From Octopus vulgaris (taxonomy: Eukaryota): 64,000 nucleotides of DNA. The stretch is taken from positions 13,268,001 through 13,332,000 of the forward strand of contig OX597825.1 of NCBI GenBank assembly GCA_951406725.2, in the 5' to 3' direction. The translations under genes and the position numbers were made by a program. Shown here one piece after another: positions 58,204 through 59,339 of this stretch. Each line of letters opens with the position of its first letter. The stretch's first letter is position 1. The notes beneath the pieces are model-generated. The model was given only the letters and a program-made list of their open reading frames with translations. It made no database searches and was not told where the DNA came from.

Positions 58204-58837
58204 TATATAATATATAATTTTTTATGTGGGACATAAGATACAAAAAAGTTTAAGAAAAGAGAAAAAAGGGGAAAAATATTCTATACTGTATACTACGATA
58301 TTATTTTACAGTGTATTTCGGAGCAAAGTTATAATAACTATTATTATTTAGCATTTTAATGGACTAAAATATACTTTCCACTGTTCAAAGAAAAAAGTAT
58401 TGGGTATATAAAAAATTATAGTGCATTTACATTTGAGAGGAATTTACATTTTTTATGCGAAAAAAAGTTTTTAAATAAGAGGCAGTTTTTATAATCCGTT
58501 AGATTTTTCAAAAGTATAATTGTAATAGCTAGTAATCTCCCTTTGTTCATGCAGTTAAATTTTTTTTCTCTAGGGTTTTATTATGATGAAAAAATTATCA
58601 TTTGTTTTACTAAAGAACTACATTTATAAGATTTGTGGACAATATGGATATATATTTATATTTATACGCACGCGGCGTTTTTAGGTGCATATGTAGATAA
58701 ATTAAAAGTTTCAATAAATGCTGATGTCGGTTTATAAGATTTTAAAAAATAAAAGATAAAAAGCCTAGTAATAGCATTTTCTAAAATAGGGGTTATATGG
58801 GAAAAAAACATAAATAGAGGGCTATTAAGTAAATTAC

Positions 58838-59178
58838 GGAGATGTACTTGCATAGCAAGTGATTTGATCTGAGATCTTGTGCTGGAACGAAAACAATTGC
58901 AGTGTGGAAGGTGTTTGTAAGCCATTTAAGAAACACACAAAAGCCGTTCGATTCACTTCAACATTTAAGTTTAATTTGTCAAAATATTTTCGTCGCTTTA
59001 AGACCGCGACCTGTTCAGTGACAAAAATCTGAGATGCAGCACGGATTTATGTCAGTGAACAGGTCGCGGTCTTATAGCGACGAAAATATTTTGACAAATT
59101 AAACTTAAATGTTGAATTGAATCGAACGGCTTTTGTGTGTTTCTTTAAATGGCTTATAAACACCTTCCACGCTGCAAT
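58838..59178. mobile_element. Foldback element family F1, copy 2, with 15-bp TSD
   Basis: Near-complete palindrome centred near 59038; TATTAAGTAAATTAC at 58823-58837 and 59179-59193. Confidence 0.92.
59050..59096 (+). ncRNA. Hammerhead-like fold with G3-C8 swapped core; mirror copy on minus strand at 58975-59025 has C3/C8 mismatch
   Basis: tgtca-GTGAACA-G-GTCGC-ggtcttata-GCGAC-GAAA-ATAT-TT-tgaca. Confidence 0.65.
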
Positions 59179-59339
59179 TATTAAGTAAATTACTGAAAAC
59201 AAAAGAAGAATTGTAATGGTTGTAAGTGTATATAAGTATATTCCAGTTAACAATGAAATAAATATTATAGATTATTGTATAAGTTGGAATAAGTTGGTGT
59301 TCGAGTTTTTGAATAACATAATTAAATATCTGAGTAAAT

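Follow-up and report, generated by a model that had tools for sequence, protein, structure and literature searches.

The window analysed here is a stretch of 64,000 nucleotides of the genome of Octopus vulgaris (assembly GCA_951406725.2, contig OX597825.1, positions 13,268,001 to 13,332,000 of the forward strand). It contains, at 58823..59193, a palindromic insertion of a repeat family that we call F1. Our best explanation is that the palindrome consists of two end fragments, placed head to head, from the pseudo-long terminal repeat (pLTR) of a Penelope-like element (PLE), copied from two RNAs and inserted as one event, and that these fragments carry a hammerhead fold, with a G-C pair at core positions 3 and 8, which is kept by selection and would act as a weak, protein-assisted ribozyme: we put the probability of this explanation as a whole at about 0.7. 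A stronger joint claim, that an active natural G3-C8 hammerhead persisted through at least two PLE waves and that the copies record insertion of two RNAs by a dimeric enzyme, is made tentatively, a little short of an even bet.

Anatomy of the palindromic insertion

The insertion is a palindrome of ~370 bases whose arms, 58892-59036 and 59037-59182, are 92-93% complementary. Its foldback has a minimum free energy (MFE) of -232.5 kcal/mol (z -32), and none of 100 shuffled sequences folds as well. The direct repeat TATTAAGTAAATTAC stands at both ends, at 58823-58837 and 59179-59193, which bears out the foldback with a 15-bp target site duplication (TSD) described in an initial annotation of the window. 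The last four bases of the left copy also match the distal 3' end of the element, so the length of the TSD lies between 11 and 15 bp.

The two arms are unequal. The long arm (58834..59029, minus strand) covers positions 11-205 of the pLTR unit and ends at a distal, putative start site of the reverse transcriptase (RT). It alone carries a ‘tail’ of ~57 nt (58834..58891), corresponding to about codons 11-30 of the open reading frame (ORF) of the parent PLE, whose first ~30 codons lie on the same strand at 58836..58925 (ATG 58925-58923). The short arm (59032..59179, plus strand; unit -2 to ~146) runs from a putative transcription start, AGATG, to a proximal, putative RT start, and takes in the parent ORF from its ATG to about codon 10 (59149..59179). 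At the junction, 59030..59031, stand a filler T and an extra G, at 59031, which is absent from the templated upstream sequence and may derive from a cap. The arms also differ at diagnostic subfamily sites 42 and 123.

Each arm contains a hammerhead fold. On the plus arm (59050..59096) stem I pairs TGTCA (59050-54) with TGACA (59092-96); the core GTGAACA (59055-61) has G3 at 59055 and C8 at 59060, and an extra G (59062) follows A9; the other 5-bp stem, stem II, pairs GTCGC (59063-67) with GCGAC (59077-81), and is followed by GAA (59082-84), the palindrome AATATT (59085-90) and U17 (59091). This is the layout of a minimal type I PLE hammerhead with a GUGAACA core, as first proposed, and the predicted cut, 3' of 59091, keeps its place at U17. 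The fold of the minus arm (58977..59023), with a loop II of the CTTAAA subfamily, reads CTGAACA at its core and has the mismatch C3 (59018)/C8 (59013) that had been raised as a caveat. The mismatch is present, but it is a change in the window copy, and C3 is rare family-wide.

The parent element

Some copies of the F1 unit extend upstream. A search with that part led across a microsatellite-rich 3' untranslated region (UTR) into the terminal part of a GIY-YIG ORF and, further on, to RT motifs. The parent protein has the motifs PTDKSG (DKG-type), GSMDV and RYVDD, a Cys linker, and a Cys between GIY and YIG (VYQIKC..EGAC..YIGET). Its natural frame of 1,025 amino acids (aa) matches the Pfam GIY-YIG domain PF01541 with 25.4 bits (cutoff 22.6, E 1.8e-5); the RVT_1 match to the parent ORF is weak (E 0.05), and a PDB sequence search with this ORF gives no match. 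One ORF with an RT followed by a GIY-YIG endonuclease is what characterizes endonuclease-positive (EN+) PLEs.

Among 144 scored matches, ~70 have 77-100% protein identity and form the parent family; the others form a sister family at ~55% identity, with open frames of up to 1,312 aa. All nine long-ORF loci of the parent family that were examined end with the GTGAACA fold. In a natural tandem, L189, the 205-nt unit continues directly into the ORF, whose ATG is at unit position 115; at its N-terminus, 91 aa align with an intact sister ORF of 1,312 aa at 41% identity. A sister tandem is built likewise, with the ORF start inside the partial repeat. The F1 unit is therefore a pLTR core and not a non-coding element. 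Read from its sequence, it belongs to an autonomous RT + GIY-YIG PLE as that element's pLTR, and holds a putative transcript start, the hammerhead and the first codons of the ORF. Mobilisation by a Penelope element, suggested from the start, thus finds direct support in the linkage to this ORF; a non-coding foldback family, the other half of that suggestion, does not survive, since the unit holds a start codon and single copies make up 16 of the 40 unselected loci. The same ORF led us to drop two other candidates, a non-autonomous element and a tRNA-type short interspersed element.

By the features given in PMC8557442, the Cys linker among them, the parent would be of Neptune/Nematis type, an assignment by motifs made next to a tree that holds no named reference of either clade. 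(Here and below, all sources other than PMC11167929 are cited for parts of their text only.) Against an autonomous parent stands the lack, among the 144 scored matches, of a full-length intact ORF of its family: the longest open frame, of 1,025 aa, comes partly from an inverted junction.

Other PLEs are found nearby or among the loci. A very young sister PLE (L193:1631-1678, and L194-L199) has intact ORFs of 1,310-1,312 aa that include a long insert rich in Asn. At L005:2741-3145, an insertion is adjoined by a GIY-YIG fragment from a different PLE family.

Core states across the genome

We scanned 2.8 Gb of genome in 227 contigs. Copies are counted as arms with exact stems, and a few tens of the matches counted come from two older families. 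With position 8 restricted to C or G, the pattern of stem II plus GAAA yields 6,021 exact matches, against none for its reversed control: the pattern is therefore not a product of chance. Allowing A or T at position 8 adds 170 matches, for a total of 6,191, and 5,591 of these are G3-C8, so that F1 departs from the literal C3 and G8 of CUGANGA. The 6,021 matches include 223 with G8 and a base other than C3, 204 with C8 and a base other than G3 (C3 in 15 of the first 100 of them), and only three with C3-G8. These three belong to another old family, and the scan yields no C3-G8 ancestor with the F1 loop. No further G3-C8 family with a different stem II stands out among the first 100 matches of 171; on viral contigs there is a single match, lacking stem I, which we read as chance.

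The variant had been expected to elude CUGANGA-based motif searches. Rfam at its gathering threshold has no match in the window, and hence also passes over two motifs, at 24645 and 59465, that are of the canonical CUGAUGA kind. They belong to another PLE-type minimal hammerhead, with a CTGATGA-A core and an AACGTT palindrome, that occurs in the window at 24645 (+), 52046 (+; U3) and 59427-59473 (-), and that Rfam also misses.

Conservation of the fold

Pattern matches reveal two older families with the same stems: family B, with core GTGACCA, and family C, mostly U3-G8. Family B was collected by its downstream DNA only, not by motif, and was aligned to F1; 12 of its 30 loci reach the fold, picked by eye and including the query, with G3 in 9 of the 12 and C8 in all 12. 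When the commonest letters of F1 and B are compared, none of the 32 constrained positions has changed, versus 39 of 173 other positions (Fisher p 0.001). Differences between the two families fall on N7, on loop II and on the length of the palindrome, AAUAUU in F1 and AAUU in B, and the hammerhead letters U4 G5 A6, A9, G12 A13 A14, the pair A15.1-U16.1 and H17 are all in place and unchanged.

More distant relatives come from metagenome contigs, where 9 of 45 related loci have the fold after the ORF, seven with C3-G8 and two with U3-A8; a tenth match lay upstream of the ORF and is excluded from this count. Over 15 representatives, obtained by scans that favour pairing, the 3-8 pair is C-G in ten, G-C in two, U-A in two and U-G in one: positions 3 and 8 are paired in 15/15. 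The stem II pair 10.2-11.2 takes the forms T-A, A-T, C-G and G-C across related PLEs, whereas the stems of F1 hardly vary. Covariation is 0.183 versus 0.114 in shuffled data (3/500), on rows chosen by stem II. The covariation check thus comes out as pairing kept while letters change, at 3-8 and in the stems, and G3-C8 stands as the compensatory swap it was taken for. In a tree of 11 rows rooted at midpoint, the parent groups with its sister (100/99) among relatives with C3-G8 and U3-A8; from this placement, G3-C8 is probably the derived state.

Selection has, from these alignments, likely kept the fold. Two points weigh on the other side: the comparison of F1 with B is a single lineage comparison on loci picked by eye, and a G3-G8 core is found in ~190 copies, distributed through all subfamilies. 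The latter look like recurrent mutation; twenty such loci are spread across subfamilies and have no other change in common, and we dropped the idea that they form a subfamily of their own.

Several observations on core states may be recorded here. Changes of C8 to G (~190; unit position 27) outnumber changes of C8 to A or T (170), and recur in near-identical young copies. The sister family has a C3-G8 fold with C at position 9 in 12/12 folds seen, and locus L293 also has C9, with U3-A8. Loci of the old family C (L061-L063, L094-L105, L113) are mostly U3-G8, with some C3-G8 and a few A8.

Putative ribozyme activity

The 3-8 pair forms in the active conformation of the hammerhead. The engineered swap C3G/G8C is partly active (PMC8495972; PMC11167929), and in a PLE hammerhead it restores part of the activity (PMC11167929). 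A G3-C8 variant is reported, as ‘data not shown’, to be less active with C17 (PMC3884650), and F1, which has U17, avoids this context. Hammerheads with U3-A8 are known in nature (PMC3088659; PMC4209133); a natural one with G3-C8 was not found in the literature searched, in which supplements and variant surveys were partly covered. The natural G3-C8 of F1 may then be a third Watson-Crick state of the core pair, one that escapes CUGANGA searches, which we advance with the same reserve as the joint claim to which it belongs.

We lean towards the view that the motif is a working ribozyme in source elements, weak and assisted by protein. A number of results count against activity. The AAUAUU duplex is worth -0.2 kcal/mol, so the suspicion that an A-U-only stem III is weak was justified (it is very weak); such stems are usual in related PLEs and are no sign of decay. 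The MFE structure of the monomer pairs G3 with U17, and the predicted dimer exchanges stems rather than pairing the palindrome. The back-to-back folds of the window insertion lie on opposite strands and cannot form one, and a read-through transcript folds as one long hairpin that buries the motif: the window locus is therefore expected not to self-cleave. The C9 of the youngest intact sister family suggests that catalytic demands in the clade are loose. Finally, arms that start at the predicted cut have 62 matches, ~20 of 30 being true truncations, four of them by way of microhomology in stem I; they are not in excess of those at a control position (85 matches, 11 of 20 true).

The strongest alternative accepts the same PLE origin but denies the fold any catalytic role: it would be dead or irrelevant as a ribozyme, and would owe its conservation to binding of the element protein or to a function as downstream promoter sequence. 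The cut-site starts, the weak stem III and the C9 of an intact sister family all fit this view. So does the position of the fold, 18-65 nt past the putative start, a possible zone for promoter elements, and mutants of the hammerhead of PAc, the Poseidon element of Anolis carolinensis, still insert in vitro (PMC11167929). However, the differences between F1 and family B are confined to positions that are free in hammerheads, the 3-8 pair survives changes of letters in every representative (with the bias of the scans already mentioned), and this pair belongs to the active conformation. On balance we consider a dead fold unlikely, at perhaps one chance in a few, and retain the weak, protein-assisted ribozyme.

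Sense-sense hammerhead dimers could form at only two of the loci seen, L026 and L049, which hold head-to-tail arrays with (TA)n between units: five full units at L026:1286-2430 and two at L049:1501-1948, both loci having been picked by similarity. In six other loci (L228, L231, L202, L206, L211, L230), deletions or junctions bypass the hammerhead: they leave from one stem I strand or from loop II and resume at the 3' strand of stem I, as expected if the RT jumps folded RNA or uses microhomology.

Probable insertion from two RNAs

The architecture of insertions was surveyed on an unselected sample of 40 loci, taken from the first pattern matches on one contig; each locus has at least the one intact fold that the pattern requires, and variants with G8 or a short loop are left out. 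Of these loci, 24 are head-to-head inverted, 16 single and none tandem, which overturned an earlier impression, drawn from similarity-ranked matches, that most copies are single. In all 24 inverted loci a long arm is paired with a short one, and 61 of the 64 arms of the sample end either at >=195, that is at least 195, or at 140-151. The same plan of long and short arms is found in insertions of 3.7-5.6 kb. Flanks are (TA)n in 29/40 loci, and TSDs in unique, non-repeat flanks measure 9-15 bp: variable TSDs and unequal arms, cited at the outset as marks of retrotransposition, keep that value, and the fixed-length TSDs of DNA transposons, which would have spoken against it, were not seen. Inverted 5'-truncated copies with a one-sided tail, variable TSDs and AT-rich targets are features of EN+ PLEs. 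Contigs of one public sequencing run, which are neither expression nor RNA-end data, have loose ends at the 5' end of the unit and at both 3' ends.

The 5' ends of short copies carry a trace of their templates. The base before AGATG is C or T in 40/40 templated rows, and G in none, versus G in 25 of 33 short-copy rows, among which one palindrome counts twice; one row has been moved from the long to the short class. Genome-wide, 966 matches read G-AGATG and 1,573 have another base, 773 of the latter being of the templated TTCYY form; A precedes AGATG in 8 of the first 100 non-G matches. Copying of the cap by an RT is known for other retroelements. The inserted templates were likely capped sense RNAs that span an uncut hammerhead.

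Pairs of arms tell how many templates were used. Loops are discordant, GATTTTA-type versus GTCTTA-type, in 6 of 20 inverted pairs (L004, L128, L130, L239, L252, L285), a set restricted to pairs that retain both loops, one or both of them GATTTTA-type; of the 14 concordant pairs, five belong to long-ORF insertions. One of the discordant pairs, L239, is flanked by a single 12-bp TSD. Gene conversion or nested insertion is another conceivable source of discordant arms. We consider it likely that the two halves were copied from two separate capped RNAs, and infer one priming event per target end, at different RNA sites.

Could both arms come from one molecule? Self-priming on an antisense transcript, which PMC3846280 proposed while calling for tests, or a fold-back on one template, would yield the head-to-head orientation; small palindromes do occur at junctions (L186), and 49 of 90 informative inverted pairs have no diagnostic difference between arms, which counts against two RNAs. 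However, such concordance is also expected if one source dominates at a given time, the extra G is located at the sense 5' end, and the subfamily loops joined in the six discordant insertions are distinguished by an indel as well as several bases. An origin from one molecule thus seems improbable, and less likely than a dead fold.

Less probable still is a rival account of the sharp 5' end, in which AG/ATG is a splice acceptor, preceded by CTAAC...YAG, and short copies are spliced products. The upstream sequence, GAACTAAC-TGTTACTTTC(T/C)(C/T)AG, has the appropriate form, and a D. virilis intron ends at helix I (PMC4209133). However, short copies retain the AG, share one further upstream base, G, and then vary, whereas a spliced exon would leave a longer common sequence. 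Since a single base is common to them, a copied cap fits better, and we reject splicing as the cause of the sharp end.

A foldback of the miniature inverted-repeat or DNA-transposon kind, with an accidental likeness to a hammerhead, would explain the long inverted arms, but terminal inverted repeats on every copy and a fixed short TSD are absent (16/40 loci have one arm, 5' truncation occurs, TSD lengths vary), and the direct linkage to an RT + GIY-YIG ORF, in a group whose relatives have homologous canonical hammerheads, refutes it almost entirely.

Under the two-RNA reading, insertion might proceed as follows. Transcription would start at AGATG, ~18 nt before stem I, and the RNA would hold in order the hammerhead, the ATG (unit 115), the ORF, a 3' UTR of 1.0-1.3 kb and the next pLTR. 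The element protein would cut both strands of an AT-rich target, and its RT would start from unit ~146 or ~205: a start in the 5' pLTR leaves a run of ~150-205 nt to the cap and could produce the many short copies with an extra G, while priming in the 3' pLTR could produce long 5'-truncated copies. A dimeric enzyme may carry two capped sense RNAs, using the distal start on one target strand and the proximal start on the other; the complementary DNAs, one per target end, would then meet head to head, giving a palindrome, a one-sided tail and a TSD. The most likely substrates of the ribozyme are transcripts of the element, whose tandem RNA it would process or whose ORF-bearing RNA it would decap, and not the inserted templates.

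Other insertions and remnants

The window contains a second, older inverted insertion of F1, in (TA)n at 31815..32135, whose arms cover unit positions 25-204 and 5-144 and which has a G3-C8 fold at 32013 (+). About 1 kb from it, at 29850-30810 (-), lies a decayed RT-like remnant with an FVDD motif in one frame, which probably belongs to another PLE family. Elsewhere in the genome, copies of the element lie inside duplicated blocks: L166/L167 (6.4 kb, 93%) and L055-L057 (a 5.2-kb tandem, three repeats).

Comparison with known systems

If these proposals are true, a natural G3-C8 core completes the natural covariation at 3-8; searches by descriptor and by Rfam undercount hammerheads, and PLEs reported without one may need rechecking. 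PMC3846280 treats the way in which head-to-head PLE insertions arise as an open question, and later steps are unvalidated in PMC11167929: the extra G, the strict pairing of long and short arms, and the arms of mixed subfamilies lead to a concrete two-RNA model that is testable in the PAc in vitro system. Thousands of ~150-bp hairpins may also be a source of double-stranded RNA in host transcripts.

F1 resembles the hammerheads of metazoan PLEs (PMC4209133) in its site in the pLTR, the extra base 9/10.1, the pair G10.1-C11.1, the 5-bp helix I and the palindromic helix III, and in being found mostly in truncated copies; it differs from them at 3-8, G-C here and C3-G8 or U3-A8 there. The ORF begins inside the pLTR as in PAc (PMC11167929), where, as proposed for F1, two internal RT start sites delimit a tail and the template is uncleaved RNA; targets are AT-rich in both. 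PAc is also reported to extend both target strands, to have no reads at the cut site and to need its own protein for cleavage. However, the swap is natural here and engineered there; the ATG follows the cut site by 57 nt, whereas in PAc it precedes it by 26 nt; the tail measures ~57 nt, as against 30-40; and the parent of F1 has the Cys linker of Neptune/Nematis. With the Neptune/Nematis EN+ PLEs (PMC8557442; PMC3846280) it shares an RT with a C-terminal GIY-YIG, the Cys linker and (TA)n targeting, as well as tandem and inverted insertions with a one-sided tail (PMC3846280), but in F1 very short copies, from cap to priming site, dominate. Non-LTR retrozymes (bioRxiv 10.64898/2026.07.22.740005) are likewise short hammerhead units from PLE pLTRs, and F1 has its few tandem arrays at L026 and L049; unlike them, it consists mostly of copies scattered singly or in inverted form, with ends at the RT starts of the parent, with no separate tandem non-autonomous family.
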